A stretch of DNA of 64,000 nucleotides from Bacteroidota bacterium (GCA_027487835.1 JAIYCU010000012.1:21718-85717), one strand, 5' to 3'; numbered from the stretch's first letter, positions 3,561-56,813 are shown. Program-made: numbers and translations. Notes: generated by a model from the sequence alone, not told the origin.

Positions 3561-5999
3561 GTGTCCATTCACGAATTAAATACTTGGTTCAAACAGAACA
3601 ATAAAGAACCTTTCTCTTTTCAAACAGCGACTTGGAACGCTTTTATGGACGGAAAAAGTGGTCTGGTAAACGCACCAACAGGTAGCGGAAAAACCTTTGC
3701 CTTAGCACTGCCAATAATCATGCATTGCAAGGATCAAAAGCAAAAAGGGCTAAAAGCGATTTGGATTACACCGATTAGGGCTTTAAGTCAAGATATTGCC
3801 AATGCATTTACAAGTGCTGCTGCTCATTTAGCACCGAATGTTACGATTGAGGTTAGAAATGGAGATACCTCAACAAAAGATAGAAAAAGGCAAAAGGAGC
3901 AAATGCCAGATATTCTTATTACAACCCCAGAAAGCTTGCATTTGTTAATCTCGTCTAAGTCTAGCTATTCCGATTTAAAATCGGTTCAAACCGTAGTAAT
4001 TGATGAATGGCATGAATTATTAGGTAGCAAAAGGGGCGTTCAAATTGAATTGGCTTTAGCTTGGCTAAAATCTTGGTTGCCAAACTTACAAGTTTGGGGA
4101 ATAAGCGCCACAATTGGCAACTTAGCGCAAGCAATGGAAGTTTTGTTGGGTCAACATACAGCTTCATCACAAGCTGTTCTTATAAAGGCAACGCATAAAA
4201 AGAAGATTGAAATTATAAGTGTGCTGCCGCATGCAATTGATGAATTGCCTTGGGCGGGACATTTAGGCATCAAGTTGTTGGCGCATGTTATGCCTTTATT
4301 ATCTGAAGCAAAAACTACCTTATTATTTACCAATACTCGTGCTCAAACTGAGATTTGGTATCAAGCAATTTTAGAACAAATGCCAACTTTGGCAGGGCAA
4401 ATTGCTATCCATCATGGCTCATTAAGTCAAGAAATAAGAAATTGGGTAGAAGCACAAATACATGAAGGAAGTTTAAAACTAGTAGTTTGTACTTCTAGTT
4501 TGGATTTAGGGGTAGATTTTAGACCAGTAGAACAAATTATTCAGATTGGAAGTCCAAAAGGAATTGCAAGATTTTTGCAAAGAGCAGGTAGAAGTGGGCA
4601 TCAACCTGGCGCAGTTTCCCGAATTTATTTTGTACCCACGCACACCATTGAATTATTAGAAGTTGAGGCCATAAGAGAGGCAGTAGAAAATGAATTTATT
4701 GAAAGTCGCACTCCTCTTATACGTTCTTTTGACGTGCTTTCGCAGTTCTTGTTAACCCTTGCCATTGGGCCGGGTTTTGAGGCTTCCGAAATGTATAATA
4801 TAGCTAAATCTGCTTATGGTTTTAAAGAATTGGAGCCACTAGAATGGAATTGGTTGATGCAATATTTAGTAGCAGGAGGAAAAAGTTTAGAGGCTTATGA
4901 TGAATTTTCAAAATTAGAGAAAGATTCAAATGACAGGTGGATAATTAGGGGCAGAAAGGAAGCCATGCAACATAGATTGAGCATGGGAACTATTGTTGGA
5001 AGCAATGCCATGCAAGTTAAATTTTTGGGTGGAGGTAGTTTAGGAACCATTGAGGAATATTTTGCTGCCAACCTTCAAGTAGGCGATATTTTTGGCTTTG
5101 CAGGACGTAATCTAGCATTTATTCAATTAAAGGAAAATTCTGTTTTAGTAAGAAAATCTGAATCGAAAGCCACTAAAATTCCAAGCTGGCAGGGGGGGAG
5201 AATGCCATTAAGTTTAGAACTAGGCAATTTGTTAAGAGATAAATTTAGGCTGAACCGAAGCCAACAGTCAAGAGAATTTGAACTTGTGCGGCCAATTCTT
5301 GAGATGCAAAAAGAGATTTCCTTTTTACCACAACCTCATCATTTTTTAGTGGAACAACTAGCTAGTAAAGATGGGTATCATTTGTTTTTTTACCCATTTG
5401 AAGGAAGATTAGTGCATGAAGGACTATCTGCCTTAATTGCCTATCGAATAGCCAAGCAAATTCCAATAAGTATTTCGATGGCAATGAATGATTATGGGTT
5501 TGAAATATTAAGTGACCAGTTGTTAGAAGCCGAAGAAATTTTAAGCCTAGATATTTTTTCTGAAGATAATTTACGCAATGATTTGCTCAATAGCCTTAAT
5601 TCTGGTGAAATGGCGAAACGTAAATTTAGAGATATTGCTCATATTGCAGGTCTAATTTTTAGAGGATACCCAGGAAAGCCAGTTAAATCTAGACATTTGC
5701 AAGCCAATAGTAGTTTGTTTTTTGAGGTCTTTAAAACCTATGAACCTGAAAATTTGCTATTTCAACAAGCATTTGAAGAAGTTTTGGAGCAACAATATGA
5801 AGAGATTAGATTGCGTTCGACCCTAAATAGAATTTCTAAAAGCGAAATAATAATAAAAAAAATAGAGAAACCCGGCCCCTTTGCATTTCCAATTTTAGTA
5901 GATAGGTTGCGACAAAGCGTTACTTCAGAAACGCTTGCCGATAGGGTAAAAAAATTAGAGTTGAGTTTTGTTAGCAAAAAAGAGAAAAAGAAAAAGTAG
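3561..5999 (+). CDS. lhr: Lhr-core DEXH-box ATP-dependent helicase (ligase-associated DNA-damage-response type)
   Basis: Walker A NAPTGSGKTFA, DEWHELLGSKRG (DEXH box), SAT-like ISATIGN, helicase C motifs QRAGRSG; ~810 aa typical of Lhr-core. The track start TTG at 3534 lies inside the upstream terminator hairpin, so GTG 3561 is preferred. Confidence 0.75.
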   Translation: MSIHELNTWFKQNNKEPFSFQTATWNAFMDGKSGLVNAPTGSGKTFALALPIIMHCKDQKQKGLKAIWITPIRALSQDIANAFTSAAAHLAPNVTIEVRNGDTSTKDRKRQKEQMPDILITTPESLHLLISSKSSYSDLKSVQTVVIDEWHELLGSKRGVQIELALAWLKSWLPNLQVWGISATIGNLAQAMEVLLGQHTASSQAVLIKATHKKKIEIISVLPHAIDELPWAGHLGIKLLAHVMPLLSEAKTTLLFTNTRAQTEIWYQAILEQMPTLAGQIAIHHGSLSQEIRNWVEAQIHEGSLKLVVCTSSLDLGVDFRPVEQIIQIGSPKGIARFLQRAGRSGHQPGAVSRIYFVPTHTIELLEVEAIREAVENEFIESRTPLIRSFDVLSQFLLTLAIGPGFEASEMYNIAKSAYGFKELEPLEWNWLMQYLVAGGKSLEAYDEFSKLEKDSNDRWIIRGRKEAMQHRLSMGTIVGSNAMQVKFLGGGSLGTIEEYFAANLQVGDIFGFAGRNLAFIQLKENSVLVRKSESKATKIPSWQGGRMPLSLELGNLLRDKFRLNRSQQSREFELVRPILEMQKEISFLPQPHHFLVEQLASKDGYHLFFYPFEGRLVHEGLSALIAYRIAKQIPISISMAMNDYGFEILSDQLLEAEEILSLDIFSEDNLRNDLLNSLNSGEMAKRKFRDIAHIAGLIFRGYPGKPVKSRHLQANSSLFFEVFKTYEPENLLFQQAFEEVLEQQYEEIRLRSTLNRISKSEIIIKKIEKPGPFAFPILVDRLRQSVTSETLADRVKKLELSFVSKKEKKKK

Positions 6000-6079
6000 G
6001 TTTGAACCAAGTAAAGAATCCGATTACTTTTGCAACTAAATAATTTTTAAATTTGACTTATAATAATAAACGTTCATAC

Positions 6080-7465: not shown

Positions 7466-7487
7466 GAATAGGTTCAATAATTTAACA

Positions 7488-7526
7488 AAAAGGGATGTTT
7501 GTAAATGCAAACATCCCTTTTTTATT
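7488..7526. terminator. bidirectional intrinsic terminator between convergent TPR gene and lacI-family gene
   Basis: stem aaagggatgtttg / caaacatcccttt with T-tracts on both sides. Confidence 0.6.
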
Positions 7527-8519: not shown

Positions 8520-8650
8520 AAATTGTAAGTACAAGGTAGTAATTAGCACTTAATTATCAACAACAATCGATTGCGCAAACCATTGCGTAGTTTGGTTTGA
8601 ACCAACTCGTGTGTTAAAATATAATTTCGATTCACCAAAATAAATCAACT

Positions 8651-11287: not shown

Positions 11288-11317
11288 TGTTTTTTAGTTT
11301 AATTGGTAGTAAGTTCC

Positions 11318-11342
11318 TGGTTTGCATATTGCAAACCAGGAC
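11318..11342 (+). terminator. intercistronic hairpin (partial terminator/attenuator) between TBDR and symporter genes
   Basis: perfect 11-bp stem cctggtttgca tat tgcaaaccagg, 30 nt after the TBDR stop and 13 nt before the symporter ATG; no strong U-tract. Confidence 0.4.
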
Positions 11343-11354
11343 TTCTTTTAGCTT

Positions 11355-12941: not shown

Positions 12942-12946
12942 ACAGT

Positions 12947-14119
12947 ATGATGATTTCAGATAATGCCTATCAAATAGCTATTCAAGTTTTAAAGGAAGCC
13001 TCCTTTGAACATGGCTTTTTGGCATCGGTTCAAAACGAAGCAAATTATAAAAGGGTTTGGACAAGAGATAGTGTCCTTTGCGGTTTAGCTGCTCTTCAAA
13101 CAGGAGATAATTCTTTGGTTCAAACCTTTAAAAATGCTTTGATTACAATTTTTGACCACCAACATGAGGCTGGATTTTTTCCTTCAAATATTGGTATCGA
13201 AGATAAACATGTAAGCTTTGGAGGACCAGTTGGGAGAACAGATAATACCTCATGGGCTATTATAGGTATGTGTAAGTTTTTGATTCAATGCCCAGATTCA
13301 AATTTCGCAGAAAAGTATTATGCAAATATTTGTAATGGCTTTAAAGTTTTAGAAGCATGGGAATTTAATGGGAAAGGCCTCATTTATGTGCCTCAAAGCG
13401 GTAATTGGGCTGATGAATATTATCAACACGGGTATCTTTTGATGGACCAATTACTTAGGGTTTGGGCCTTAGAATTGGCAGCCAAAGTTTATAATATGGA
13501 CCGTTTTAATCACAAAGCTATCGCCATAAGAGCCATAATTGAAGAAAACTTTCATAGCTCAAAGCTTTCACAAAAGCCCTATTTGCCACTTTTAGAAAGG
13601 TCAAAATCCAATTTTCCAAACAACTATTGGGTAGGAGGTTTTAATCCATCTGCAGTTTATACAAACTTTGATCTGTTAGCTAACGCCTTAGCTATTTATC
13701 TTCAATTAGGTTCAAGCCAAATACAAAACCAATTGATTTCTTACTTAAGACAATCAATTAGTCAAAATGAGTTCATGATTCCTTCATTTTCTCCAACTAT
13801 TGAAATCGCTGAACCAGATTTTAATATCCTCATGAATTTGCACAGTTTTAAGTTTAGAAATTTTCCTCATCAATTTCACAATGGTGGATTATGGCCTGTT
13901 TGGAATGGTTTTTTGGCAGGAATAATTTTAAATATCGATGAAAGTCTAGCAAATGAAATTGGGAAAAGGGTAGAGCTGGCTTGTAAGTTGGGAACAAGTG
14001 AACAACCTGAATGGGACTTTAATGAATGTTTTAATGGATTGACAAATAAACCTCAAGGCATCTCAAGATGTAGTTGGTCGGCAGCAGGTTTGATCCTAAG
14101 CAAAAGCGCATTTTTATGA
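12947..14119 (+). CDS. (alpha/alpha)6-barrel glycoside hydrolase, neutral/alkaline invertase (GH100)-like; family assignment tentative
   Basis: 390 aa cytoplasmic protein; motifs RVWTRDSV, GNWADEYYQHGY, WNGF resemble six-hairpin glycosidases of the GH100/GH63 type; operonic with fructokinase. Confidence 0.45.
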   Translation: MMISDNAYQIAIQVLKEASFEHGFLASVQNEANYKRVWTRDSVLCGLAALQTGDNSLVQTFKNALITIFDHQHEAGFFPSNIGIEDKHVSFGGPVGRTDNTSWAIIGMCKFLIQCPDSNFAEKYYANICNGFKVLEAWEFNGKGLIYVPQSGNWADEYYQHGYLLMDQLLRVWALELAAKVYNMDRFNHKAIAIRAIIEENFHSSKLSQKPYLPLLERSKSNFPNNYWVGGFNPSAVYTNFDLLANALAIYLQLGSSQIQNQLISYLRQSISQNEFMIPSFSPTIEIAEPDFNILMNLHSFKFRNFPHQFHNGGLWPVWNGFLAGIILNIDESLANEIGKRVELACKLGTSEQPEWDFNECFNGLTNKPQGISRCSWSAAGLILSKSAFL

Positions 14120-19112: not shown

Positions 19113-21467
19113 ATGAGTACAAAAACAAAGTCTCTTTTATTTGCCGCTTTTTTCATATTTTTAAACTTAAACATAAGTGCACAACGCATTGATTCTATTG
19201 ATGTATTGCATTATAATTTAAACCTTAAGTTTCAAAATTTTTCAGCCAAGAAAATGAGTGGGGTTGCATACCTTACCTGCCAATCAAAATTTTTCGGTTT
19301 GAACCGATTTCTGTTAGACCTACAAAAGCTAAAGGTAGATAGCATTTTATTGAACTACAAAAGTGTTTCTTTCTCAACTTCTGATTCAACAATTTTGGTT
19401 CAAACAGAAACCACATTAAATGCAAACGATACTTTTAACTTACAGGTTTATTATGCCGGCTCGCCTGTTACCGACCCGCGTTGGGGAGGTTTCTTCTTTA
19501 GTGGAAATTATGCCTATAATATGGGTGTGGGAATGGGCTCAAGTCCACCTAATTTTGGTAGATGCTGGTTTCCTTGTCTCGATAATTTTGTAGATAGAGC
19601 CACTTATGAATTTCATATAACCACAGATTCAGGATTTATGGCTGTTTGCAGTGGCTTACAATGGCCTGCTACTAACAATCCAGATGGTTCTATTACTTGG
19701 AACTGGCATTTATCTCAATCAATTCCTACCTATATTGCCAATGTGGCCATTAGTAAATATGTACTTATTAATAGTTCATATGTAGGTTTGCAAAGAAATA
19801 TACCTATTACGCTAGCCGTAAATCCAGCTGATTCTGCAAAAGCCATTTCTTCTTTTGTGCGATTGGCTAATGCAATGAAGTGCTTTGAAGATAAGTTTGG
19901 GCCCTATTTGTTTGATCGTGTAGGTTTTGTTGGGGTTCCTTTTAATTCAGGTGCAATGGAGCATGCATGTAATATTTCTTATCCCTTATACGCAGTTGAT
20001 GGGGCTTCCACCTATGAAACTTTAATGGCTCACGAACTTTCTCATCATTGGTGGGGAAATTTAGTTACAACCAGAACTGCATCTGATATGTGGCTTAACG
20101 AAGGTTGGGCTAGTTATTGCGAGGCATTATTTTTGGAATGTGTTTATGGAATTAATGATTACAATACAAAAATTGAATCAGAATTATTTGATGCCCTTAG
20201 AAATGCTGCTGTAAGAGACCAAGGATATAAATCTGTTTCAGGCGTTCCTCTTGCCCAAACTTATGGCACTCATGTTTATACCAAAGGTGGCTTAATGGTA
20301 CATAACCTTAGGCTTTTAATGGGTGATGCCAACTTTTTTGCGGCATGTAAGAGTTATCTCAATTTGTATAAGTTTAAAGATGTTAGTTCTAATGATCTTA
20401 AAAATGAGTTCCAAAAGTTTACTTCAACCGACCTTACTTCATTTTTTAATTCATTTATTTTTGACAAAGGGCACCTAGATGCTCAATTTTCTAGTGCCTT
20501 AGCAACAGATGGCAAATTCTTGGTGAGGGGCAATATCATGTCGAGGTACAAAAGCAATTTCTCTGATAAACTAGTTTTGCATTGTGGAGTTTATGCAAAG
20601 GATGGTACTAAAAAAGTTTACCCATACACTGTTTCTGCCCCTAAAAGTGCAGGTCCAATAGAATTTGCTATCCCCAATATTGATACAAATAAGGTAGCTT
20701 TTGTTGTTTTAAATGAAAATTCAGGTATGGCTTTAGGAAGTATAAGCGAACAAAAGTGGCTAAAAACAAATGGCGTTAATAACTTTAGCAAAGTGCAATT
20801 TACTGCAACGGTTTTGGCAAATGGCGATTCGAGTTTATTGCATGTTCAACACCATTATGCGCGTCCATGGATAGCCGAAAACCAACTTCCTAAAAATGTA
20901 ATTGTAAGCAGCGAAAGATATTGGGAGATTAAGGGTATTTTAACCAATGAGTTTAAGGCAACTGCTTTTTTTAATTATGATGGCACCTTGAATACGCGTT
21001 TAGACAATGAGCTAATTACTTTTTCGGAGGATAGTTTAGTTTTACTTTACAGGCCATCTTCAATGGATGCATTTGAAATTGAAAGTGATCTTACCTTTCA
21101 AACTGGGCCAAGCAAAACGGATAAGGTTGGAAGATTTTGGGTCAATAATTTAAAAAAGGGTGAGTATGTTTTTGGTTATAAAGATGCTTCTGCTGGTATT
21201 AATCCAGAAATAAATATAAATAATACCTTGCTTGTATTCCCTAATCCCTCGGTAACTGGTAAATTCAATGTTACACTTCCCATCTTGGATAAAACTGCCC
21301 GTCTTGAAGTATATTCCAATAATGGGAGTCTTATTTTAACCAAAAATGTTAAAAGAAATCTTAGTAGTTTAGAAATAGATTTGGGCGTAGAGAACAATTC
21401 CCAATTTTATTATTTGATTTTAATTACCGGTGATAAACAATATAAAGCTACTTTATTAAACAAATAA
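19113..21467 (+). CDS. M1-family (aminopeptidase N-like) zinc metallopeptidase with T9SS C-terminal sorting domain
   Basis: signal peptide; GAMEH (GAMEN variant) and HELSHHWWGNLVT...E zinc motif; last ~80 aa resemble Por/T9SS CTD (KFNVTLPILDKTARLEVYSNNGSLILTK...YYLILITGDKQYKATLLNK). Confidence 0.75.
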   Translation: MSTKTKSLLFAAFFIFLNLNISAQRIDSIDVLHYNLNLKFQNFSAKKMSGVAYLTCQSKFFGLNRFLLDLQKLKVDSILLNYKSVSFSTSDSTILVQTETTLNANDTFNLQVYYAGSPVTDPRWGGFFFSGNYAYNMGVGMGSSPPNFGRCWFPCLDNFVDRATYEFHITTDSGFMAVCSGLQWPATNNPDGSITWNWHLSQSIPTYIANVAISKYVLINSSYVGLQRNIPITLAVNPADSAKAISSFVRLANAMKCFEDKFGPYLFDRVGFVGVPFNSGAMEHACNISYPLYAVDGASTYETLMAHELSHHWWGNLVTTRTASDMWLNEGWASYCEALFLECVYGINDYNTKIESELFDALRNAAVRDQGYKSVSGVPLAQTYGTHVYTKGGLMVHNLRLLMGDANFFAACKSYLNLYKFKDVSSNDLKNEFQKFTSTDLTSFFNSFIFDKGHLDAQFSSALATDGKFLVRGNIMSRYKSNFSDKLVLHCGVYAKDGTKKVYPYTVSAPKSAGPIEFAIPNIDTNKVAFVVLNENSGMALGSISEQKWLKTNGVNNFSKVQFTATVLANGDSSLLHVQHHYARPWIAENQLPKNVIVSSERYWEIKGILTNEFKATAFFNYDGTLNTRLDNELITFSEDSLVLLYRPSSMDAFEIESDLTFQTGPSKTDKVGRFWVNNLKKGEYVFGYKDASAGINPEININNTLLVFPNPSVTGKFNVTLPILDKTARLEVYSNNGSLILTKNVKRNLSSLEIDLGVENNSQFYYLILITGDKQYKATLLNK

Positions 21468-21468
21468 T

Positions 21469-22287
21469 ATGATTAAAGCGCCTGTTGCTTCAATAGCCAT
21501 TGTTAAATATACTGAAAGTGATTACTTGCAAACCCAGGATTTGCTTGCAGTTGAAGAACCAATGGAAATTAGGTTGCAATTTGGTGAAGGCGATTTACGA
21601 AAAGAGATTCCAATTTCTGTAACGATGCGCACCCCAGGCAATGATTTTGAGCTAGCCTTGGGTTTTTTATTTACTGAAGGCATCATCACAAAAATAGCTG
21701 ATGTAAGCCAAATTAGTTATTGTAATTCTGCACCAGAAAATGGTCAAAACATTATAAAAGTAAGTTTAAATGATAATTTAGAAATTGATTTACAAAAATT
21801 ACAAAGAAATTTCTATACTAGCTCTAGCTGCGGTGTTTGCGGAAAAGCAAGTATTGATGCTATAAAACAGCATTGCAACAGAATAGAAATTCAAGGTTTG
21901 CGGGTTGATCCAAACTTACTTTTAAGCTTACCTGACAAACTCGCTTCGGTTCAAACCGTATTTAAACATACAGGAGGCATACATGCAAGTGCTTTATTTG
22001 ATTGGGAAGGGAACTTACTTATACATAGAGAGGATGTAGGAAGACATAATGCTTTAGATAAACTCATAGGTTATTTAATTAGCAATATTCAAATAAAGAC
22101 CGAGGCTTCCATTTTATTATTGAGCGGTAGGGCTAGTTTTGAGTTGGTACAAAAAGCAGCAATGGCTAGAATTCCTATAATTGCTGCGGTGGGCGCACCC
22201 AGCAGCTTGGCGGTTGAAACAGCTAAAAACTTTGGCATTCAACTGTTTGGATTTCTAAGAGAGAATAGATTCAATAAATATGCTTAA
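21469..22287 (+). CDS. fdhD: formate dehydrogenase accessory sulfurtransferase FdhD
   Basis: 272 aa; hallmark SSCGVCGKASID cysteine motif and GGxHA region typical of FdhD; no fdh catalytic gene in window. Confidence 0.8.
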   Translation: MIKAPVASIAIVKYTESDYLQTQDLLAVEEPMEIRLQFGEGDLRKEIPISVTMRTPGNDFELALGFLFTEGIITKIADVSQISYCNSAPENGQNIIKVSLNDNLEIDLQKLQRNFYTSSSCGVCGKASIDAIKQHCNRIEIQGLRVDPNLLLSLPDKLASVQTVFKHTGGIHASALFDWEGNLLIHREDVGRHNALDKLIGYLISNIQIKTEASILLLSGRASFELVQKAAMARIPIIAAVGAPSSLAVETAKNFGIQLFGFLRENRFNKYA

Positions 22288-26975: not shown

Positions 26976-28081
26976 GAAATGGTTTGAACCAATTTTTGAG
27001 CGTTTTTATTATTATCAAATCTACTTCCCACTATTTCTTTTCTTTTCGCGATATCCTCATCATTGAACGTTTTTTGCATTAGATCATCTAATTTTTCTGC
27101 CATTTCCTGCCCTGTATCGGCTAAGATAACTGCTGCTTGCAATCCTGCTGCCTCTACCATTTGTGTATTGGCTAATAAATGCTTACCTAGAAAAAGGCAA
27201 TTAATCAATTTTAACTTTATGCCTGTGGGTTGAAAGGTTGGCAAAATATTAACGCACGCCTTTTTAATTAGTTGATCTATTTCTTGTGGTGATAAACCCT
27301 CCAATAAGCTAACATTTGAATGTTTTGCAATTAAATTTCGGAGACTTTCTTTTGCCCCATCCCCTGCAATCACAAGCCTTTTATTGGAATGCGGCATTAC
27401 CTCTTTTAGCAAAAACATAGCAGATACATGATTTTCTACCACACTTAATTTACCATGGTAAAAAGCAAAATCTTCGAAGGTTTTACCTATCTCCACTTTT
27501 GATTGAGCATGAAAAGGAGAAAGCAAGGTAACTTTATCTCCATACCTAGATTTTAATTCAGTTTCATCCTTTTCAGATATAGCAAAAATCTTATCTGCCT
27601 TATTTAAAATTGGTTCAAACCGACTTAATAAAAAACCCTCTATTGCTAAATAGATTTTCTTAAATAATCGCTCCTCTCCTTTTGCTAAAAGTTTGTAATA
27701 ATCATGCTCAATATTATGCATTCTTACTAATTTCAATCTTCCTTTCAAGGCTGGATGGTCTAAGTAATAGCAGCAATGTAAAGCTTCAAATAAAATTGGA
27801 TAATCATTAGATCTCAAATTTTTTAATAAATGCGTGTCTCCCCTGCTACTTACAATGAAAGGCTTTAATGAAAATTTAAAATTACTTCGTTTATAGTAAA
27901 AAACCTTTTCGCAATAATTTTCTAATTCATTAGTCTCTTGCCTGTTTCCATAAATGAAAGTGTGAAGGATGATTTTTACTCCCGCTTCATGCAAGGCTTT
28001 AATTTTATAAAAAACATCTATTACCCCTCCATAATTGGCAGGAAATGGAACATCAAAACATACAATATTTATGAACTTCAA
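26972..28081 (-). CDS. glycosyltransferase (GT1/GT4-like fold)
   Basis: 369 aa; N-terminal Rossmann-like acceptor domain, C-terminal nucleotide-sugar-binding-like region; overlaps ftsE stop by 4 nt. Confidence 0.5.
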   Translation of the reverse strand: MKFINIVCFDVPFPANYGGVIDVFYKIKALHEAGVKIILHTFIYGNRQETNELENYCEKVFYYKRSNFKFSLKPFIVSSRGDTHLLKNLRSNDYPILFEALHCCYYLDHPALKGRLKLVRMHNIEHDYYKLLAKGEERLFKKIYLAIEGFLLSRFEPILNKADKIFAISEKDETELKSRYGDKVTLLSPFHAQSKVEIGKTFEDFAFYHGKLSVVENHVSAMFLLKEVMPHSNKRLVIAGDGAKESLRNLIAKHSNVSLLEGLSPQEIDQLIKKACVNILPTFQPTGIKLKLINCLFLGKHLLANTQMVEAAGLQAAVILADTGQEMAEKLDDLMQKTFNDEDIAKRKEIVGSRFDNNKNAQKLVQTIS

Positions 28082-28084: not shown

Positions 28085-29176
28085 TTAAATAGCTTTATAA
28101 ATTTGAATCAATTTTACTGATTCGCGCTGCAAATTATATGCTTTAGCGGCCATTCTGCAATTATTTTCTAGTTTTTTGTATAATTCTTGGTCGTTTGCCA
28201 AATTATTTAAGGTGGAAGCTATCTCTTCCACCTTAGCTTGACAAATAATAGCAACTTCAAATTTATTATTAATGCTTATATATTCTGGGAAAGGCGGACA
28301 AAGCTGAGGTACTTCGGCATGGATATAATCAAAGAATTTATTGGCTAAAGAAAAGTAATAGCTTTTGCTTTCAGGTTCTAATAAATTGTATCCTAACCAA
28401 GCCTTTTGTGTGTATTGTTGCAATTCTGCAGGTCTTATCCATCCTGCAAATTCAACTTTTTCATTAAGTTTTTCGGTTTGAACCAAAAGTCTGAGAGAAT
28501 CACTTAAATCGCCCTCTCCAATGACTAATAATTTACCTTCAAACAATTTCATAGCAAGTATTAAAGGTTCTAGCGCTCTTCCCTTATTTAATGCACCTTG
28601 GTAAACAATTAATCGTGGAGTTTTCATTGCCAAACTTTGATTTGTATTGAGCGGTGGTACATTTTGGATAAATCCAAATGGTTGATTGTACTTTAAACTT
28701 AACTCAGCAGCCAATGCCTCACCAACCGTATAAGATTTAGCAGCGTATGGGATACAAATTTTTGCAATCTCATTCCAAATTGCTTTAATATCAGACCTAT
28801 TCACCAATTCAGGAACTTCAGTAAAATATTCATGTGAATCAAATGTCAATTTCGTAGATTTTAAAATAGCAGCTAAGGTGTTTGGCAAGAGTGTATCTAA
28901 ATCCACTGCCAAAAATAAAAATGGCGACTTTCCCAATAAAAAGATTAAAAGTCGAAGATTGAATTCTAAATAAAATAATTTCCCTTTTTCAAAAATGCAG
29001 TTAATTCTTTTTTGTCCGAAAACTTCTTCTTGTAAAGGCAAAGAACTGCTTTTTAGTCGACCTACCAAAAGCACCTCAAAACCTGCATTAACGAGAATTG
29101 TCGCATGCCTTCTCATTCTTTGATCGAAGTTTAAGTCGTTACTTACGCTTATTATTATTTGTTTTCTTTTGTCCAA
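28085..29176 (-). CDS. glycosyltransferase family 4-like
   Basis: 363 aa; C-terminal RLIVYQGALNKGRALEPLILAMK...EGKLLVIGEGD pattern typical of the GT4 donor-binding domain. Confidence 0.5.
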   Translation of the reverse strand: MDKRKQIIISVSNDLNFDQRMRRHATILVNAGFEVLLVGRLKSSSLPLQEEVFGQKRINCIFEKGKLFYLEFNLRLLIFLLGKSPFLFLAVDLDTLLPNTLAAILKSTKLTFDSHEYFTEVPELVNRSDIKAIWNEIAKICIPYAAKSYTVGEALAAELSLKYNQPFGFIQNVPPLNTNQSLAMKTPRLIVYQGALNKGRALEPLILAMKLFEGKLLVIGEGDLSDSLRLLVQTEKLNEKVEFAGWIRPAELQQYTQKAWLGYNLLEPESKSYYFSLANKFFDYIHAEVPQLCPPFPEYISINNKFEVAIICQAKVEEIASTLNNLANDQELYKKLENNCRMAAKAYNLQRESVKLIQIYKAI

Positions 29177-39032: not shown

Positions 39033-39980
39033 GTGAAAAATGTTGAAATAATAACCATTGAATCAGATTTTGGAGCAGGAAAAAAAGGAGCTAACCTTGG
39101 CCCTCAAGCATTTCTTAAATGCTTCAACCAAGAGTTAAATTTAAATCTACCCCATACAAGAATTGAAAGTAATCACTTGGAAGAGGAAGAACCCTATCCA
39201 GGTAATTTCGCCAAAAACATAGAATCAATTGTTGAAATACAAAAACTTGCCTTGCAAGCAATCGCAGAAGTAATTGATAAAAAGTCATTTCCGTGGATTA
39301 TTAGCGGGGATCATAGCAACGGCTTAGCGGGTATTAGTGCTTATAAAGATTTATATCCCAACAATACCCTCGGAGTTATTTGGATTGATGCGCATGCCGA
39401 CCTTCATACGCCTTTTACATCGCCAAGTGGCAATATGCATGGTATGCCGCTTGCTGCAGCACTTGGCTTAAGAAAAACCACTTCTGGTAAAAACAACTTG
39501 GATAAGGACACTATGCTACTTTGGGACAACCTTATCAATTTAGGTTCAAACCGAATTAGCCCTAAAATAAACCCTGAACAACTTGTTTTTCTGGAGTTAA
39601 GAGATTTAGAATCAGAAGAAATTGAATTGTTAAATTCATTAGAAATAAAGAATTATACACCAGAACAACGCAAAGCTATTGGCTTGAACCAATTATTAGC
39701 TGAAATTAATAAACAATTAGAAAATTGCGATCATATTCTGGTTTCATTTGATGTGGATAGCCTTGATCCAACCATTTCCTTTGGAACAGGCACCCCAGTC
39801 CCTGGTGGGCTTTTATGGGACGAAGCAGTAGATTTATTGAGCGCATTACTACAATTGCCCAAGCTAGTAGCTTTTGAAATTACTGAAATTAATCCCTTAT
39901 TAGACCGAGCAAATCCAATGGAGGAAGTTTCAGCGAAATTAATAAAAGAAGTTTTTGAAAAGTCTGGCTTTTTAAGCTAG
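39033..39980 (+). CDS. arginase/agmatinase/formiminoglutamase-family ureohydrolase (agmatinase candidate by context)
   Basis: Mn-binding motifs GDHS, WIDAHADLHTP, SFDVDSLDP; GTG start; divergent from speA. Confidence 0.75.
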   Translation: MKNVEIITIESDFGAGKKGANLGPQAFLKCFNQELNLNLPHTRIESNHLEEEEPYPGNFAKNIESIVEIQKLALQAIAEVIDKKSFPWIISGDHSNGLAGISAYKDLYPNNTLGVIWIDAHADLHTPFTSPSGNMHGMPLAAALGLRKTTSGKNNLDKDTMLLWDNLINLGSNRISPKINPEQLVFLELRDLESEEIELLNSLEIKNYTPEQRKAIGLNQLLAEINKQLENCDHILVSFDVDSLDPTISFGTGTPVPGGLLWDEAVDLLSALLQLPKLVAFEITEINPLLDRANPMEEVSAKLIKEVFEKSGFLS

Positions 39981-40979
39981 ACTTTTCAAAAATGAAAGGG
40001 TATCAATCCCATCTGCATAATCCCATAATTCGGGTTGCTGACTTTTACCAAAATCCACCAAGTATTCTGCCTTGCCTACGCCGCACTGTATCACTTGTTC
40101 ATTTTCTTTTAAATATTGTTTAACGTCTGCCTCCGTATCATAAAAAGCAAATAAAAGTACACTTAAAGGCGATGCTAAACCATCATCTTGTTTCAATATT
40201 AAGAAGCCATTATCCAAGTGTGGCGTTAGATTCATCAAGAAAATAGCCTTGTGATAGGTGTAATTATTAGCATACTTATTATGGTTAATAATATCTTTAT
40301 ACTTCTCCAATGCTTGAAACAAGGGTTCTAAGTTATACCCTCGTGGGAGTAAGAGTTTAGAGACATTGCGACAACCCAATCCGAAGTAAAAAAACACATC
40401 ATCTGCCAGCGCATCTAATTCCTGTACTGTCTCTGTACCTGTAACAACAGCCACGCTATTTCTGCTTCTTCGCAATAAATTAGGCTTGTCCTTAAAGTAA
40501 AATTCAAAATATCTATTGCTATTGTTACTTCCCGTTGCTATTACAACGTCAAAATTTTTCAATTGTCTTTCTTCCACAAACGAAATATATTCAGAAAAAC
40601 CTGGTTCAATTTCGATAAGTTTTTCAATAGCCCATTTCATTAATTCTGTATCATCTGAAGAAAGTTTTACTACCGCTTTATGTCCAACGATAAGCACAGA
40701 TAATAAATCATGAAATCCAACCAAGGGGATATTTCCTGCCATAATTATCGCTACCATTTTGGGTTCGGTTTGAACCGAAAGCTCATAAGGATTTAACCAC
40801 TTTGTCAAATTTTCTTGATTTAGCAATTTTCCCCAGGCATGAAGGGCTTGCAATTGCATTTGAATCGTGAACCATTGATTCCTGATAAAAGCCTGATTTA
40901 ATATGGCCAAATCTGCGTCAGCTTGGGTAAAAGTGTCTCCAAGTTTTGAAAATGCTGCTATTCTTTGTGTATAATTCAT
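39972..40979 (-). CDS. LuxC-like acyl-CoA reductase family protein (tentative)
   Basis: 335 aa; resembles the acyl-CoA reductase proteins common in Flavobacteriia/Sphingobacteriia (pattern AIIMAGNIPLVGFHD, GLGCRNVSKLL); family call from memory only. Confidence 0.4.
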   Translation of the reverse strand: MNYTQRIAAFSKLGDTFTQADADLAILNQAFIRNQWFTIQMQLQALHAWGKLLNQENLTKWLNPYELSVQTEPKMVAIIMAGNIPLVGFHDLLSVLIVGHKAVVKLSSDDTELMKWAIEKLIEIEPGFSEYISFVEERQLKNFDVVIATGSNNSNRYFEFYFKDKPNLLRRSRNSVAVVTGTETVQELDALADDVFFYFGLGCRNVSKLLLPRGYNLEPLFQALEKYKDIINHNKYANNYTYHKAIFLMNLTPHLDNGFLILKQDDGLASPLSVLLFAFYDTEADVKQYLKENEQVIQCGVGKAEYLVDFGKSQQPELWDYADGIDTLSFLKSLA

Positions 40980-49765: not shown

Positions 49766-51110
49766 GCGGTTTGATCCAAGATTTAGAGGCCCAAGTATCA
49801 GTAAGATTTAATAAATTTTGATTTGGCTTAATAAGCAATTGACTAGGCCTTCCGTTTAAAGTAACATATACTTCTGCCCTTACCGTGTTTACCTTTAAAC
49901 CTTTTGCTTCATACTGTTTTTTGAGAAATTGAGCAAATTGTAGAATCATATCTGGCTGCATGGCCATTTGTTTTTCTTGATGAGGGTTTAAAAAATCAGA
50001 ATTAACAACAACGCCTTCTCTTTGGGTGTTTTCATCAAATACATAAAAGGTAGCAGTTCCGGCTTTTTCAAACAGCATTACTCGCCAACCAAAGCGGTAG
50101 CCTTGTTCTGTCCAAAGGTGATTGCCATGGTAAAGCAAGTATCTCCAAGGGAAGAGCAAATGGAAAGAGATCCAAATCAATAAGCTTAGCTTTATAAATA
50201 ATTTATTATCGGCTTGGGTAATACGTTCTTGGTTTGGTTCAAACCGAAAAAAAGGAATAAACCTTGCAAAAAACTGAATGAATTTTAAGTGAAACTGATT
50301 GCTAAAAAAGATGAGTGTAGAAAATGTCATCACCAAAGGGAAAACCCCAATTTGAAACAAGTATCCAGTAAGGCTATGGAACAAAACAATGCAAAGCCAA
50401 GCCCAAATTCTAGTGCTTGAAAAAAGTAAAAAAAATCCAACAAAGATATCAAACAGCATACCTGCCCAACTAAACAAATAAGCAGTAGTTTCGTAAGTAA
50501 AAATTGAACCCAATATTGGCATGTCGCTATTGGCAGGCAACCATATTTTTAAGGGCATTGCAAGTATTAGCCAATCATAGTTTATTTTAGCAATACCTGC
50601 GTAAAAATACACCAGAATCAATTGAAATTTGAGAAGAAAAAGCATGTATGATTTTACTGTAGGGCACGACTTACTTTGCTGTTTTTTTGCATCAAAAGCA
50701 TAGGCTTTATTGGCAGGTAAAAACATCATCAAAAAGGCGATAAGGCTAACAAAATAGTAGTGGTTTAAGTAATAGGTTATATCAATTAACTCGCACCAGG
50801 TAAAACAAATGAAAAAGGCAATGCTGGCAATCCTGTAGTATGCCCCTAAGAAAACCCCGATGCTGGCCAAAAGCATAATACCATGAAGTACATACATGTA
50901 AAATTCGGGCAAGAGAGGTACCCATTCAAAGCCAAAATATTTGAATTGGATTTTTGTTTCAACAAAGTGAAGATTTACCCAATCTAAAAGAATAAAGCGA
51001 AAGGTGCTAAGAAAGGTGGTGAGGCCAAAAATAATTCTAAAGCCAATTAAAGGTAGAATTGATACCTCACGAAAAAGGAATTGACTAAATTTATTTTCCT
51101 TAATCGCCAT
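49755..51110 (-). CDS. HTTM-domain (vitamin-K-dependent gamma-carboxylase-like) polytopic membrane protein
   Basis: 451 aa, 8+ TM helices, N-terminal HTTM-like region, C-terminal soluble part; start overlaps the upstream gene by 11 nt. Confidence 0.6.
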   Translation of the reverse strand: MAIKENKFSQFLFREVSILPLIGFRIIFGLTTFLSTFRFILLDWVNLHFVETKIQFKYFGFEWVPLLPEFYMYVLHGIMLLASIGVFLGAYYRIASIAFFICFTWCELIDITYYLNHYYFVSLIAFLMMFLPANKAYAFDAKKQQSKSCPTVKSYMLFLLKFQLILVYFYAGIAKINYDWLILAMPLKIWLPANSDMPILGSIFTYETTAYLFSWAGMLFDIFVGFFLLFSSTRIWAWLCIVLFHSLTGYLFQIGVFPLVMTFSTLIFFSNQFHLKFIQFFARFIPFFRFEPNQERITQADNKLFIKLSLLIWISFHLLFPWRYLLYHGNHLWTEQGYRFGWRVMLFEKAGTATFYVFDENTQREGVVVNSDFLNPHQEKQMAMQPDMILQFAQFLKKQYEAKGLKVNTVRAEVYVTLNGRPSQLLIKPNQNLLNLTDTWASKSWIKPLEN

Positions 51111-52198: not shown

Positions 52199-53332
52199 TT
52201 ATCTATTTTGATCGTTTACCCAATTCTTTTTAAATTCTTCAATTTCAATATTTGAGAAATTGTATTCGGTTTGAACCAAAGAAATAATTTGATTAAGTTT
52301 ATTTACTTGGTTTACGCGATCACTAATGAACAATAAAGGATTGCCAAGTGCATCTGGTTTGGCTTGCAAAAGGCTTAGGATTTGCATAGATTCATCAAAA
52401 CTAATAGATTTTCTTGCCATACTGGCCCAACCCATTGTAAACCCGGCACATTCTGCAAGGGAATGTAAAGTTGCTGCTTTTTGTGCAGGTGTCATTTCTG
52501 TTTGAGACATATTTGAAATGGCTGAATGGCAATAATTTATTACTGTTGCAAAAGTGGCTTTTTCTAGAATGGATTTAATGGCCTCTCTAGCCTCATCTCT
52601 TTCTTTATTAAATTTGGCTCCTGCTTTAAGTGCTGCTTGTAACTTTAAGAAGTTGAATTTAATTTGAGAATAGAAGCCATTTCCATCATTTTTATCGCGT
52701 CGCGCAAGGTAATTAGCCATATATCTATCTGCATAAACGCCATGTTTTGTGGCACCGCTATTTTTAAATTGTGGTGTTAATCCTATCAAGAAAAGCGCTT
52801 GGTCTAACGTTTTTAGGTTGGGTTCATTTATGATTAATAATTGCAAAGCCATTTTGACGCAATAAGAGCCAAACATATCCTTTTCAACCATTTGTTCTGG
52901 CTCATGTCCATTTGCGGTAAAAAGGTATCCACCATATGTTCCACCTATTTTGTTAGTTGAATCTGGGTTAAATACATTTCCAGAAGCCATTTCAGCTTTC
53001 TCCAACCAACCATTTGACATGCTTAATATAAAATCTACATTATAAGAATTCATATTGGTATAAACTGAAACACCATTATTATTGGTTAGAAAATTCCTCA
53101 TTTTATATGCCGCTAACTGTACGTCAGTTGTTCTCCCCTTTTTCATTTCCACCACCAATGCATCAAATGATTGCGTATAAGGCAGCAATTCAGAGATGTT
53201 GTTGGTATAATTTGTTGAATCATAATTTGCTTCAATGACTAAATTGGCAGTGGAATCTTCCTCCTTTTTACAAGCTGCAAGGTTGGCTATGACTGCAAAT
53301 AAAATCAAGGTTTTAGTTAAGCTATTTTTCAT
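52199..53332 (-). CDS. lipoprotein, DUF4856-like (imelysin-associated), hypothetical
   Basis: 377 aa, lipobox LAAC; the position upstream of imelysin/HTTM/TBDR matches a cluster I recall in Flavobacteriia/Sphingobacteriia; family call from memory. Confidence 0.4.
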   Translation of the reverse strand: MKNSLTKTLILFAVIANLAACKKEEDSTANLVIEANYDSTNYTNNISELLPYTQSFDALVVEMKKGRTTDVQLAAYKMRNFLTNNNGVSVYTNMNSYNVDFILSMSNGWLEKAEMASGNVFNPDSTNKIGGTYGGYLFTANGHEPEQMVEKDMFGSYCVKMALQLLIINEPNLKTLDQALFLIGLTPQFKNSGATKHGVYADRYMANYLARRDKNDGNGFYSQIKFNFLKLQAALKAGAKFNKERDEAREAIKSILEKATFATVINYCHSAISNMSQTEMTPAQKAATLHSLAECAGFTMGWASMARKSISFDESMQILSLLQAKPDALGNPLLFISDRVNQVNKLNQIISLVQTEYNFSNIEIEEFKKNWVNDQNR

Positions 53333-54776: not shown

Positions 54777-56033
54777 TTATGTTTTTTTTTTTTTTTTTTG
54801 CGCAGAAGGAAACAATACATTATTTAAAATCAGCCTATATCCTGGCGAATTTGGATGCAGGTTTAAATCAGTAGGTGGCTCTCCTACTTGGTGCTGGTAA
54901 TCTTCTGGGTCGTGCCCGCTGTAGAAAGTCCAAGTGCCTTTGCCTGCAGTACCATGTATGTACCTTGCCTCATTTAAAGATTTATTCTCACCTAATATAA
55001 GCACTTCAGATTTTATATAGGGTTTTCTAAAAGCGGTGGTTTGACCCCAAAATCCTTTAATAGTGCTGGTATGGTTTTGATTAAGCATGGTTGGCACCAT
55101 ATCCCATTTTGCACTAAACTCAAATAAAGTAAAAATGTCATTTTCTTCAGTAACTGGCCTAGTGCCTTGCATCGCGTCGATGTAGCTATGTTCGTAAACC
55201 ATTGGGTCGAGATAAAGCTTATAATCTTTAAAGGCAAAGCTTTTGCTAAAATCAAGTTTTTTATCAGCCGACCAATCTGCAGGATCATTGTCAAAAACTT
55301 GGTCGCAGATATCAATTCCATCTGCAGCCATGGCAATATCCCATGTATCGGTGGCACTGCACATGGCAAACATAAAACCACCTCCAATTACATAATCTCT
55401 AATTTTTTTTGCCACCGCAAGTTTTAGTTCGCTTACTTTAGAAAAACCGTGTTTTGCGGCCATGGCCTCGGCTTCTCTTACCTCCGCCTGATACCAAGCA
55501 GTATGTGCAAAGTTGGAATAAAATTTACCATATTGACCAGTAAAATCTTCATGATGAACATGCAGCCAATCATACAATGGCAACTTATTTTCTAAGACTT
55601 CATCGTCATAAATAACATCGTAAGGAATTTCAGCATAGGTTAAAACTAAGGTAACGGCATCATCCCAAGGTTGCTTTGTTTTAGGACTATAAACAGCAAT
55701 TTTGGGAACTTTTAACAACTTTACCAATTCCATATTTACGTCGGGTTTAGCAATTTGAAGGAGAATTTCTGAAACCTGCCCTTCGCTAATCACCTCATAA
55801 CTTAAACCTCTTATTCGGCATTCTTTTTCAATGGCGTCATTCAGCATAATCATAAAGCTTCCACCTTTATAATTTAACAGCCAATCAACTTCTAAATCTT
55901 GTTTTAACACCCAAAAGGCCAAGCCATACGCTTTAAGGTGATTTTTTTGCGCTGCATCCATTGGAATGAGAATCCTTGTTGCATTAGCAAGACTGGCAGA
56001 AGAAAGCAAAAGCAAAAAGAATAATTTACGCAT
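54777..56033 (-). CDS. secreted hypothetical protein (possible class-I glutamine-amidotransferase/ThuA-like fold) with C-terminal poly-Lys tail
   Basis: 418 aa; signal peptide MRKLFFLLLLSSASLANA; GGGFMFAMCSATD nucleophile-elbow-like segment; C-terminus QKKKKKT encoded by the homopolymer. Confidence 0.55.
   Translation of the reverse strand: MRKLFFLLLLSSASLANATRILIPMDAAQKNHLKAYGLAFWVLKQDLEVDWLLNYKGGSFMIMLNDAIEKECRIRGLSYEVISEGQVSEILLQIAKPDVNMELVKLLKVPKIAVYSPKTKQPWDDAVTLVLTYAEIPYDVIYDDEVLENKLPLYDWLHVHHEDFTGQYGKFYSNFAHTAWYQAEVREAEAMAAKHGFSKVSELKLAVAKKIRDYVIGGGFMFAMCSATDTWDIAMAADGIDICDQVFDNDPADWSADKKLDFSKSFAFKDYKLYLDPMVYEHSYIDAMQGTRPVTEENDIFTLFEFSAKWDMVPTMLNQNHTSTIKGFWGQTTAFRKPYIKSEVLILGENKSLNEARYIHGTAGKGTWTFYSGHDPEDYQHQVGEPPTDLNLHPNSPGYRLILNNVLFPSAQKKKKKT
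54782..54801. repeat. poly(T) homopolymer, 18-20 nt (poly(A) on the coding minus strand)
   Basis: 20 consecutive T as displayed; the ORF-track translations (...SAQKKKKKT on minus, ...VFFFFFC on plus) imply 18 T followed by an extra AT at ~54838, so the tract length is ambiguous. Confidence 0.85.
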
Positions 56034-56045
56034 GATTCAAATATG

Positions 56046-56813
56046 CTAATTTGTTGCGATACTTTTAGAAATCAAATCATAAATTTCTAATAATTTTGGT
56101 TCATTTGCCATTATTTTTCGATGAATTTCCAAGCTGTTTTCATCTCCTCTGCTTGCAGGCCCAGTCTGCGCATCCTTTGGACTTAGCACTTGTAGCTTTT
56201 CGGCAGTTTCATTGATTAGAGGCAGTAAATATTTGAAATCAAGTTGGTTTTTGCCCAAAAAATCATGCATCAATGAAAACAGATGATTGCTGAAATTATT
56301 TACAAATACTGCAGCCAAATGCAATTGTTGCCTTTGTTTTTCTGAAACAAAAATGGCGCTATGTCCCATTGCATCAGCCAATACTTCTAAAATCCTTTTA
56401 TTTTCTTCATTGTTGGCTTCAATAGCAATGGGTATATCTTTAAAAACCACTTCTCTTTGGGCACTGAAGGTTTGGATCGGCCAAAAAATACCGAAATTAT
56501 CATGTTTATTAAGCACTTCACTTGATAAAATTCCAGAGCAATGCACAACAATGGCATTGGTATCACATTGTGCAGAAATTTCAGCCACTGCAGCATCAGA
56601 AATTGCTAAGAAAATAAGGTCGGTTTGAACCAAAGCCGTCTGCAGTGAATCTGCTAATTGAACTTTGTAAATATTAGCTAATTCACTTGCCTTCTGCGTA
56701 TTTCTAGCCCATAAAGAAGTAACTTCAAAATTAGATTGTAAGCATGCACGTAATAAATTTTGCGCCATCTTTCCACTTCCAATAATTGTTATTTTTATCA
56801 TGTATAGGTTCAA
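56046..56813 (-). CDS. Rossmann-fold NAD(P)-binding protein, DUF2520-like (ProC/ketopantoate-reductase-like)
   Basis: 255 aa, N-terminal ITIIGSGKMAQNL dinucleotide-binding motif; TTG start. Confidence 0.5.
   Translation of the reverse strand: MNLYMIKITIIGSGKMAQNLLRACLQSNFEVTSLWARNTQKASELANIYKVQLADSLQTALVQTDLIFLAISDAAVAEISAQCDTNAIVVHCSGILSSEVLNKHDNFGIFWPIQTFSAQREVVFKDIPIAIEANNEENKRILEVLADAMGHSAIFVSEKQRQQLHLAAVFVNNFSNHLFSLMHDFLGKNQLDFKYLLPLINETAEKLQVLSPKDAQTGPASRGDENSLEIHRKIMANEPKLLEIYDLISKSIATN

Follow-up and report, generated by a model that had tools for sequence, protein, structure and literature searches.

A hyper-abundant 12- to 13-nucleotide DNA word, conserved by position and respelled between sister lineages, in uncultured freshwater Bacteroidota

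The 64-kb stretch of DNA analyzed here (Bacteroidota bacterium, GCA_027487835.1 JAIYCU010000012.1:21718-85717; hereafter "the window") is about 94% coding and represents housekeeping chromosome, with gyrA, parC-like and gyrB/parE-like genes, recQ, a ligase-associated DEXH helicase gene, genes for TonB-dependent receptors and for a protein with a type IX secretion system sorting domain, trpS, and a tRNA-Leu gene. Its GyrA protein places it in an uncultured freshwater Bacteroidota lineage that is seen only in metagenome-assembled genomes (MAGs) from lakes and ponds. Scans against Rfam and for tRNAs returned no RNA family match and the single tRNA-Leu, and no methyltransferase, Vsr, or competence gene was found within the 64 kb. 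Scattered through these genes is a 10-mer, GGTTTGAACC, whose abundance, conservation, and variation in related bacteria are the subject of this work. For comparison we used the gyrA neighborhoods of 80 species (~22 kb apiece; loci numbered L003 upward). We refer to the window together with its closest relatives, L003 to L006 and L046 (GyrA at least 94% identical), as clade A, from which 40 copies were pooled, 14 from the window and 26 from 78 kb of the closest relatives. Metagenome contigs (e.g., L139 and L170) were collected by scanning with the 16-mer TTCGGTTTGAACCAAA.

An exact search of both strands found GGTTTGAACC or its reverse complement at 14 sites in the window, compared with 0.19 copies expected from dinucleotide shuffles (maximum 1), 0.12 to 0.50 from Markov models of orders 1 to 5, 0.12 to 0.22 from the same models trained on motif-masked sequence, and 0.08 when codon order was shuffled within genes. 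When the proteins were held fixed and synonymous codons were resampled from the usage of the window, 0.52 copies were expected versus the 12 observed within coding sequences (CDS). A Markov expectation of maximal order was dropped as uninformative, because the sub-words themselves consist of motif copies, and was replaced by the motif-masked models of orders 1 to 5 and the codon-aware nulls. The enrichment of the 10-mer in the window was about 30- to 70-fold, and that of GGTTTGAACCAA exceeded 200-fold (9 observed versus 0.04 expected). An unbiased scan for over-represented k-mers placed the word and its overlapping extensions at the head of the 10- to 12-mer lists and high among the 8- and 9-mers. 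Copies with one mismatch were also in excess (17 versus 5.4 expected), with mismatches clustering at positions 1 to 3 while TGAACC was mostly kept. Over the bacterium of the window and its closest relatives, the 12- to 13-nt word was some 60 times commoner than chance. The hyper-abundant word is genuine and, as a phenomenon, well supported.

A preliminary description of this DNA had listed 13 exact copies, and the exact search returned every one of these coordinates together with a further copy at 13117 on the minus strand. The division into 8 forward and 5 reverse copies given there was wrong, the numbers being 8 plus and 6 minus, and the absence of strand bias that it reported stands (binomial P = 0.79). 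The comparison with a Markov expectation that it had proposed gave an excess in the window at orders 1 to 5. Among the variants it had listed, those at 19397, 39681, 46493, 47457, 56808, 59893, and 60789 were recovered within 1 nucleotide (nt); two others had to be moved (3596 to 3586 and 49760 to 49768); and those at 41449, 41594, 63655, and 63715 proved weak, being at least two changes or indels away from the motif.

The word is longer than the 10-mer and, despite its palindrome-like look, it is asymmetric. After orienting the 40 clade A copies by their central TG, we obtained a full word of 12 to 13 nt, (tt)C-GGTTTGAACC-R-A, that specifies about 24 bits: C occupied position -1 in 29 of the 40 copies, A or G position +11 in 35, and A position +12 in all 40, whereas T at -2, the mirror of the A at +12, was present in only 24. 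The flanks that copies had been said to share were thereby borne out and sharpened, since among the 14 copies of the window, 10 had C at -1, 13 had R at +11, and every one had A at +12. The flanks of the clade A copies held no information beyond -4 and +13, in keeping with the earlier expectation that the copies do not trace to a dispersed repeat family with extended homology, and a general repeat search found no homology around the copies beyond about 16 nt. The word is therefore not a dispersed mobile repeat. An element of the repetitive extragenic palindromic (REP) or miniature inverted-repeat transposable element (MITE) type was rejected on this ground and also because 86% of the copies lie in CDS and no element-sized insertion was seen relative to the orthologues. 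The proposal that the near-palindrome points to a dimeric reader is weakened by flanks that do not mirror each other (5′ C against 3′ A), by the imbalance between +12 and -2, and by a non-palindromic spelling, GCTGAACCAA, in related species, while sister species with a perfect 10- to 16-base-pair (bp) palindrome, TTYGGTTCGAACCRAA, favor two-fold recognition there.

The constraint on the word acts on DNA rather than on protein. Twelve of the 14 copies in the window lie inside unrelated CDS and two are intergenic (5999 and 8594). Of the 12 coding copies, eight encode (L/S)-V-Q-T through GTT CAA ACC, a frame bias that arises because the opposite orientation in that frame creates a TGA stop. All five stop-free combinations of frame and orientation were occupied (VQT, GLN, RFEP, GSN, and WFKP), and the sixth was never used in 38 coding clade copies or in 62 from metagenome relatives. 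The statement that copies occur in different reading frames on both strands was accordingly true, if incomplete in view of the shared (L/S)-V-Q-T. The tripeptide VQT was itself five-fold over-represented in the window (10 versus 2.0 expected), and 8 of these 10 were spelled exactly GTTCAAACC, versus 1.1 expected from codon usage. This excess and the fixed spelling show that the DNA word drives the peptide and not the reverse, and because copies lie both along and against the direction of transcription, an mRNA signal is ruled out. The DNA-level constraint claimed at the outset is thus upheld by the codon resampling, by the VQT spelling, and by the use of five frames. A transcription-factor operator was rejected as well, as 12 of the 14 sites lie within unrelated CDS at uniformly spread relative positions. 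Finally, the same sites recurred in independently assembled MAGs and metagenomes. Although the (L/S)VQT reading of most coding copies could by itself suggest a peptide motif, the findings on spelling, frames, homology, insertions, and independent assemblies leave next to no probability for ordinary causes such as a peptide or RNA motif, a mobile repeat, or an assembly artifact.

Both orientations of the word interleaved along the 64 kb, and the spacing between copies was unremarkable (coefficient of variation 0.8 over 13 gaps). Polar chromosome signals, namely Chi sites read by RecBCD or AddAB, or FtsK-orienting and architecture-imparting sequences (KOPS and AIMS), would share with the word a density of about 1 per 4.5 kb, which resembles that of Chi in Escherichia coli, and the lineage-specific spelling that is typical of Chi. 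The strong replication skew that characterizes Chi and KOPS was, however, not seen in the 8 plus and 6 minus copies; an asymmetric spelling in the relative L011, CTGAACCAA, was likewise unskewed; and the enrichment lies far above that of Chi or KOPS. We regard a polar signal as very improbable.

In the metagenome relative L170, two copies at 1172 and 1204 form an inverted pair 32 bp apart, with a 17-bp stem, a predicted folding energy of -30.4 kcal/mol, and z = -8.6 (1160-1225), followed by T8 and located about 80 nt downstream of an open reading frame (ORF; 20-1087). Judged by its predicted fold, the word here supplies the stem of an intrinsic terminator. Another inverted pair at short spacing, in L139 (942/976), lacked a clean T-tail. 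Long ORFs left 11% of the bases of the motif-rich metagenome contigs uncovered, and 22 of the 57 sites (39%) fell there (P = 4e-8; this sample was seeded with the 16-mer and chosen for multiple copies), and nearly all of these non-ORF copies showed the full TTCGGTTTGAACCAAA.

The copies are kept at orthologous positions to a degree that their surroundings are not. Between the window and L003, L004, and L005, overall nucleotide identity was 76 to 80%, and the alignable window sites were intact in 5 of 6, 5 of 7, and 5 of 7 cases, respectively, versus 9 to 13% of all aligned 10-mers (P of about 1e-4 per relative, the three comparisons not being phylogenetically independent). At site 19296, for example, the 15-mer CGGTTTGAACCGATT was identical in all three relatives, within a surrounding 300 bp that was only 69 to 72% identical. 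Some sites were degraded (13117 in L004, 8594 in L005), and the copy at 26981, found only in the window, is probably a recent gain. Distant relatives carried, at the positions of the word, non-motif sequence of about equal length with no element-sized insertion, and copies therefore arise by substitution and not by insertion. In the M1 peptidase peptide GVGM-GSN-PPNF, GSN was spelled GGT TCA AAC, which creates the motif, in L003, L004, L006, and L011, and GGC TCA AAT (L005), GGT TCC AAT (L012), or GGC TCT AAT (L009) elsewhere; we take these spellings to show that the word was reached in parallel by changes that are all synonymous. These data show that a directional force, selection or drive, acts on the DNA sequence itself, and that its target in clade A is the TG spelling in particular.

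The word could also lack a function and be a side product of a sequence-specific bias in mutation or repair, for instance of the very-short-patch (VSP) type or as a methyl-directed ratchet. That copies arise by point substitution at near-matches, some of them in parallel, and that one-mismatch neighbors are enriched fits such a process. So does the relation between the window word and a palindromic spelling in sister species (described below), as a change from CG to TG/CA resembles the deamination of 5-methylcytosine. Against this explanation, known VSP and methyltransferase contexts are much shorter than this word of 12 to 13 nt and ~24 bits, the gains include transversions and affect several positions rather than one mismatch type, and TTCGAA is not depleted. 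Moreover, the TG form stayed intact across 20 to 25% divergence and is still being created (26981; L003 9388). This retention and ongoing gain argue against the window word being merely a decaying deamination relic of a palindrome, and we consider a repair bias an improbable, though not a negligible, cause.

One larger difference between these relatives was a 7.5-kb cassette, present in the window, L004, and L005 and absent from the otherwise syntenic L003, that encodes a LacI-type regulator, a TonB-dependent receptor, an SSF transporter, a GH100-like protein, and a PfkB kinase. Its motif density is normal (8594, 13117, and three one-mismatch copies), so that it seems native to the clade, and the ends of the indel relative to L003 did not coincide with motif sites.

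Loci with GyrA 89 to 93% identical to that of the window were enriched for related but different spellings of the word. Three of them (L013, L014, and L015) carried the perfect palindrome GGTTCGAACC, extended to TTYGGTTCGAACCRAA, and no TG copies; two 22-kb loci had 5 palindromic sites apiece, and 248 kb had 20 overall, versus about 0.1 expected. Mixtures of CG and TG forms were found in L009, L011, L012, L016, and L019, and CTGAACCAA or GCTGAACCAA was enriched in L007, L008, L009, L011, L012, and L016 (e.g., 16 versus 0.6). A further spelling of the sister branches, beside the CG form and CTGAACCAA, was TGTTTGAACC, and L030 carried TGTTTGAACCAA together with one exact copy. The core common to all spellings, YGAACCRA, is asymmetric. 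At one orthologous site, the CG form was present in L013 (19428) and L014 and CA in L003 and L009, so that the dialects can interconvert in place. In clade A, the center was TG/CA in 40 of 40 copies, never CG or TA. The frequencies of TTCGAA and TCGA in clade A were as expected, with no depletion, and the TG center is therefore not a side effect of generic methylation or restriction at CpG or TTCGAA.

A neighbor-joining tree of GyrA confined the motif family nearly to two sister clades, A on the one hand and B with its relatives on the other; only L030 lay outside, and the family was absent from the next sister clade and from all more distant genomes of the tree. Two candidate motifs of more distant relatives, GAAGGGGTCGAAT (L024 and L027) and CGATGTACGA (L026), were rejected as dialects because they are tandemly repeated at one place. 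Tandem repeats of ~180 bp that contain TGCGACCCTGAAGGGGTCGAATTG follow gyrA in the sister clade that lacks the motif (L024 13562-14108, L027 12809-13664, L025 8583), and L026 carries a local array of about 13 units of a 7-bp microsatellite, (CGATGTA)n, at 6500-6590.

The palindromic dialect raises the possibility that the word belongs to a genome-wide array of sites resembling the highly iterated palindrome of cyanobacteria (HIP1), bound by a two-fold-symmetric nucleoid- or chromosome-organizing protein, or by an orphan DNA methyltransferase and its partner, and kept site by site while the dialects co-evolve with the binder. Such an array would account for the perfect palindrome with a central CpG in sister species, from which the window word differs only by CG to TG/CA, a change seen in situ at one orthologous site at least. 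The frequency of the word, its 30- to 140-fold enrichment, its conservation inside and between ORFs, and its lineage-specific variants also match HIP1 (PMC5861425, PMC4390886). The clade A word, however, is asymmetric in center and flanks (0 of 40 copies with a palindromic center), the non-palindromic GCTGAACCAA is enriched in related species, and the unremarkable TTCGAA and TCGA frequencies give no generic sign of methylation or restriction at the center. In addition, preprints tie HIP1, whose own role is not settled, to transformation and horizontal transfer, so that this explanation partly merges with the uptake tag considered below. On balance we hold a HIP1-like array to be less likely than not, yet a close rival of the uptake tag.

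The word is a property of the lineage and not of one locus. Its density was 0.22 per kb in the window and 0.25 to 0.40 per kb in L003 to L006 and L046; among the gyrA neighborhoods of the 80 species, it was sparse at ~90% GyrA identity, one copy each was found in L023 (87%) and L030 (82%), and otherwise there was none below ~80%. Low-GC metagenome contigs seeded with TTCGGTTTGAACCAAA contained 27 additional core copies in 231 kb, often 2 to 4 within 1.6 to 4 kb, whereas high-GC contigs with a single chance match to TTCGGTTTGAACCAAA contained none in 232 kb. Two of the low-GC contigs aligned to the window at 75 to 77% identity and therefore belong to the same clade. From these motif-rich contigs it follows that the hyper-abundance is not peculiar to the window or to the gyrA region.

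Viral contigs gave 22 single TTCGGTTTGAACCAAA matches and none that was motif-rich, which is about the chance level by a rough estimate from an assumed collection size. This bears on a defense or modification system, in which the word would be a site that the system recognizes or uses to mark self DNA (e.g., Type III or ISP restriction, BREX, or Dnd phosphorothioation). The sequence GAAC/GTTC is a context of Dnd phosphorothioation; it is contained in the word and occurs twice in the palindrome, and a change of dialect between close relatives is typical of specificity switching. Targets of restriction and modification are, however, normally avoided or neutral and not enriched 30- to 70-fold and conserved, known recognition sites are far shorter than the word, the viral contigs at chance level showed neither avoidance nor mimicry, and no such genes lie within the window. 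A defense site thus seems quite improbable, more so than a repair bias.

Table 1. Copies of the word and other features in the window. Positions count from the first nucleotide of the window; the last column gives the state of the site in the loci named.
Feature	Position	Strand	Context	State in relatives
Exact copy	3983..3992	-	S-V-Q-T on the coding strand, ligase-associated DEXH helicase gene	Kept in L003
Exact copy	5999..6008	+	Intergenic; first base is the last base of the helicase stop codon	Kept in L003
Exact copy	8594..8603	+	Intergenic, between divergent LacI-type regulator and TonB-receptor genes	Kept in L004; one mismatch in L005
Exact copy	13117..13126	-	L-V-Q-T, CDS 12947-14119	Kept in L005; one mismatch in L004
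Exact copy	19296..19305	+	G-L-N, M1 peptidase gene	Kept in L003, L004, L005
Exact copy	21948..21957	-	S-V-Q-T, FdhD-like gene	Kept in L003, L004, L005, L006, L012; replaced by non-motif sequence in L007, L009, L011, L013, L014, L016, L019
Exact copy	26981..26990	+	L-V-Q-T-I-S-stop, 3′ end of glycosyltransferase CDS	Window only
Exact copy	27612..27621	-	R-F-E-P, glycosyltransferase CDS	Kept in L003, L004, L005
Exact copy	28475..28484	+	L-V-Q-T-E, glycosyltransferase CDS	Kept in L004, L005; one mismatch in L011
Exact copy	39543..39552	-	G-S-N, arginase-family CDS	
Exact copy	40767..40776	+	S-V-Q-T-E, LuxC-like CDS	
Exact copy	50236..50245	-	R-F-E-P, HTTM-domain CDS	
Exact copy	52268..52277	+	L-V-Q-T-E, near 3′ end of CDS 52199-53332	
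Exact copy	56622..56631	+	L-V-Q-T-D, DUF2520 oxidoreductase CDS	
One-mismatch copy TGTTTGAACCaa	19397..19406	-	Canonical flanks	
One-mismatch copies (17)	3586, 13027, 13709, 14087, 19397, 32889, 39681, 44970, 45343, 46493, 47456, 49768, 51190, 55038, 56807, 59892, 60790			
Match to sigma-70-like promoter	8597-8625		Includes part of the 8594 copy	
Copy running into AAAGCCGTCTGC	56622-56643			
Cassette (7.5 kb)	7533-15013			Present in L004, L005; absent from L003
Terminator hairpin	7487-7528			
Terminator hairpin	37190-37231		Directly 3′ of tRNA-Leu (37103-37187)	
Inverted repeat (99 nt), first arm	26730-26828		ABC-transporter ATPase gene 26301-26975 (plus)	
Inverted repeat (99 nt), second arm	31214-31312		ABC-transporter ATPase gene 31070-31732 (minus)	
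T run (~18; A on minus)	54783-54800		3′ end of ORF 54777-56033 (minus)	
42-bp tandem array	58723-59133		Overlapping ORFs 58787-59167 (plus) and 58696-59070 (minus)	

Two of the exact copies have neighbors that resemble known signals (Table 1). The copy at 56622 runs directly into AAAGCCGTCTGC, which is similar to the core of the Neisseria DNA uptake sequence (DUS), GCCGTCTGAA; this occurs once and is taken as coincidence. The TTGAAC within the intergenic copy at 8594 scores as a sigma-70-like -35 element, 17 nt from a TATAAT and 5′ of the TonB-receptor gene. This hit is probably meaningless, as promoter-like hits in the region were at shuffle level and Bacteroidota promoters are unlike those of sigma-70.

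Other repeats in the window are distinct from the word. The second and third most over-represented words, ATACGTTCAATGA and TTGGTTGAAAGT, stem from one 42-bp tandem array at about 58.7 to 59.1 kb and were rejected as a second dispersed motif; the array comprises about 7 to 8 copies of a 14-codon unit, ATACGTTCAATGA...TTGGTTGAAAGT, that are mutually 68 to 91% identical and sit in two overlapping ORFs. An inverted repeat with 75% complementary arms lies at two opposed ABC-transporter ATPase genes and probably reflects their paralogy. Two strong terminator hairpins, AAAAAGGGATGTTTG...CAAACATCCCTTTTTT, are 79% identical to each other. The run of T residues in Table 1, at the end of an ORF without a Pfam match, could be a slippage-prone tract or encode a lysine-rich tail. 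The likeness of GGTTCGAACC to the T-arm of tRNAs was judged superficial.

What reads the word, and to what end? A specification of ~24 bits, taken with the discrete dialects, implies that some macromolecule reads the word; we infer that this reader is almost certainly a protein. Our best reading, to which we assign a probability of roughly 0.38, is that the word serves as a self-recognition tag for DNA uptake and recombination, similar to the DUS of Neisseriaceae and the uptake signal sequence (USS) of Pasteurellaceae. We rank it slightly ahead of a HIP1-like array because the window form is asymmetric, one dialect is clearly non-palindromic, and the TG spelling is being actively kept; the two are not necessarily mutually exclusive. 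Consistent with such a tag are the asymmetric core common to all spellings, with flanks that vary; dialects that follow the phylogeny; the absence of strand skew; copies in every frame that tolerates them; gain by substitution combined with stable positions; and the inverted pair of L170. A sequence-specific DNA-binding protein of these bacteria would read (tt)C-GGTTTGAACC-R-A as the "self" word of the lineage, and DNA fragments that bear it would preferentially be bound, taken up, and recombined. Near-matches, whether genic or intergenic, would gradually be turned into matches by point mutation and biased fixation, existing copies would be shielded from loss, and shifts in the specificity of the reader would yield the dialects of the sister species. 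That uptake or transformation is the process involved is suggested by analogy. Within the phylum, Riemerella columbina prefers its own DNA in transformation competition, with no tag identified (PMC7965970), and the transformation machinery of Riemerella is atypical (PMC8459023).

Several observations weigh against an uptake tag. No competence genes, comEC, comF, and dprA included, lie in the window, although comEC and dprA are nearly universal and would in any case not decide the matter. Known DUS and USS lack palindromic symmetry, whereas here a perfect 10- to 16-bp palindrome with a central CpG occurs in sister species, a pattern more usual for dimeric binders, methyltransferases, and HIP-type elements. 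The density of the window, 0.22 per kb, is lower than that of classical DUS and USS (about 0.8 to 2.4 per kb). In the unselected loci of clade A, 3 of 40 sites fell in the 4% of non-ORF bases, an excess that is not significant. Last, conservation and dialects would be predicted equally by selection on an array of binding sites. A more far-reaching form of the uptake tag, which we consider doubtful, is that the word is the first DNA uptake or self-recognition sequence outside Proteobacteria, that its reader is not a type IV minor pilin, and that the dialects (GGTTCGAACC and GCTGAACCAA) act as recombination barriers between sister lineages.

The motif appears to be undescribed. In full-text literature searches, GGTTTGAACC, GGTTCAAACC, GGTTCGAACC, CTGAACCAA, and TTTGAACCAA turned up only in incidental primers and constructs and never as a bacterial repeat, nor did we come across any uptake-type or HIP-type word reported for Bacteroidota. 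Few hyper-abundant, position-conserved genomic words are known (DUS, USS, and HIP1), and each is informative on DNA exchange, repair, or chromosome organization. The present case is an independent one in another phylum and comes with a series of spellings, from asymmetric through perfectly palindromic to a shortened half-site form, that can reveal which bases the reader needs, and also the reader itself, by setting gene content or protein specificity against dialect across MAGs. If it is an uptake tag, it provides a concrete candidate sequence for Bacteroidota, where one species is known to prefer its own DNA and no tag has been found; if it is an array of binding or methylation sites, it would be a non-cyanobacterial counterpart of HIP1. 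In practical terms, the word can serve as a marker of composition, with which sequences of these abundant lake bacteria can be binned and foreign DNA in them recognized.

How the word relates to known systems can be judged feature by feature. Arrays of sites for ParB and Noc (parS and Noc-binding sites, NBS) and for SlmA (SlmA-binding sites, SBS) consist of 14- to 16-bp palindromes with a central CG, often intragenic, that are read by dimeric proteins whose specificity diverges between paralogues. These arrays are regional, with tens of sites per genome, and are not enriched 30- to 70-fold genome-wide, whereas several hundred copies are implied here and the window form is asymmetric.

Much closer are DUS (AT-GCCGTCTGAA and its dialects in Neisseriaceae) and USS. 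These too are words of 10 to 13 nt that occur unskewed on both strands, in several frames and in intergenic DNA; they are gained by point substitution, hold stable orthologous positions, and can form inverted pairs that may act as terminator stems, as predicted in L170. DUS, too, varies in spelling with phylogeny around a short core that does not change, CTG plus A in DUS (PMC3630211) and YGAACCRA here. The differences are that DUS and USS belong to Proteobacteria and the present word to Bacteroidota, that the sequences are unrelated, and that the word is quasi-palindromic here and fully palindromic in sister species. Furthermore, DUS and USS are defined by uptake bias and a cognate receptor (minor pilins of the ComP/ComN type), whereas the present word is known from sequence alone.

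HIP1 (GCGATCGC, with variants GGGATCCC, TCGATCGA, and CAGGCCTG) occurs at 0.2 to 2.7 per kb with 16- to 317-fold enrichment, its GGGATCCC and TCGATCGA forms among the variants described (PMC5861425). The word lies in the same range of frequency and enrichment: at 0.22 to 0.40 per kb and 30- to 140-fold, it shows the hyper-abundance of at least ~0.2 per kb and at least ~16-fold that marks HIP1. As with HIP1, its copies are kept both inside ORFs and between them, other palindromes stand in for the canonical form in some lineages, and extensions keep the symmetry, which here is true of the CG dialect (PMC5861425, PMC4390886). HIP1 is, however, an octamer palindrome with an embedded GATC/CGATCG methyltransferase site, whereas the window word has 12 to 13 nt, is non-palindromic, and contains neither GATC nor CGATCG; perfect palindromy was found only in the sister dialect GGTTCGAACC and in none of the 40 copies of clade A. 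The behavior that the preliminary description had likened to DUS, USS, and HIP1 is thus present: the word is hyper-abundant, restricted to a lineage, kept at orthologous positions, and split into dialects with a common core. By analogy, it behaves as the same kind of object as DUS, USS, and HIP1, yet we assign it to neither of the two families.

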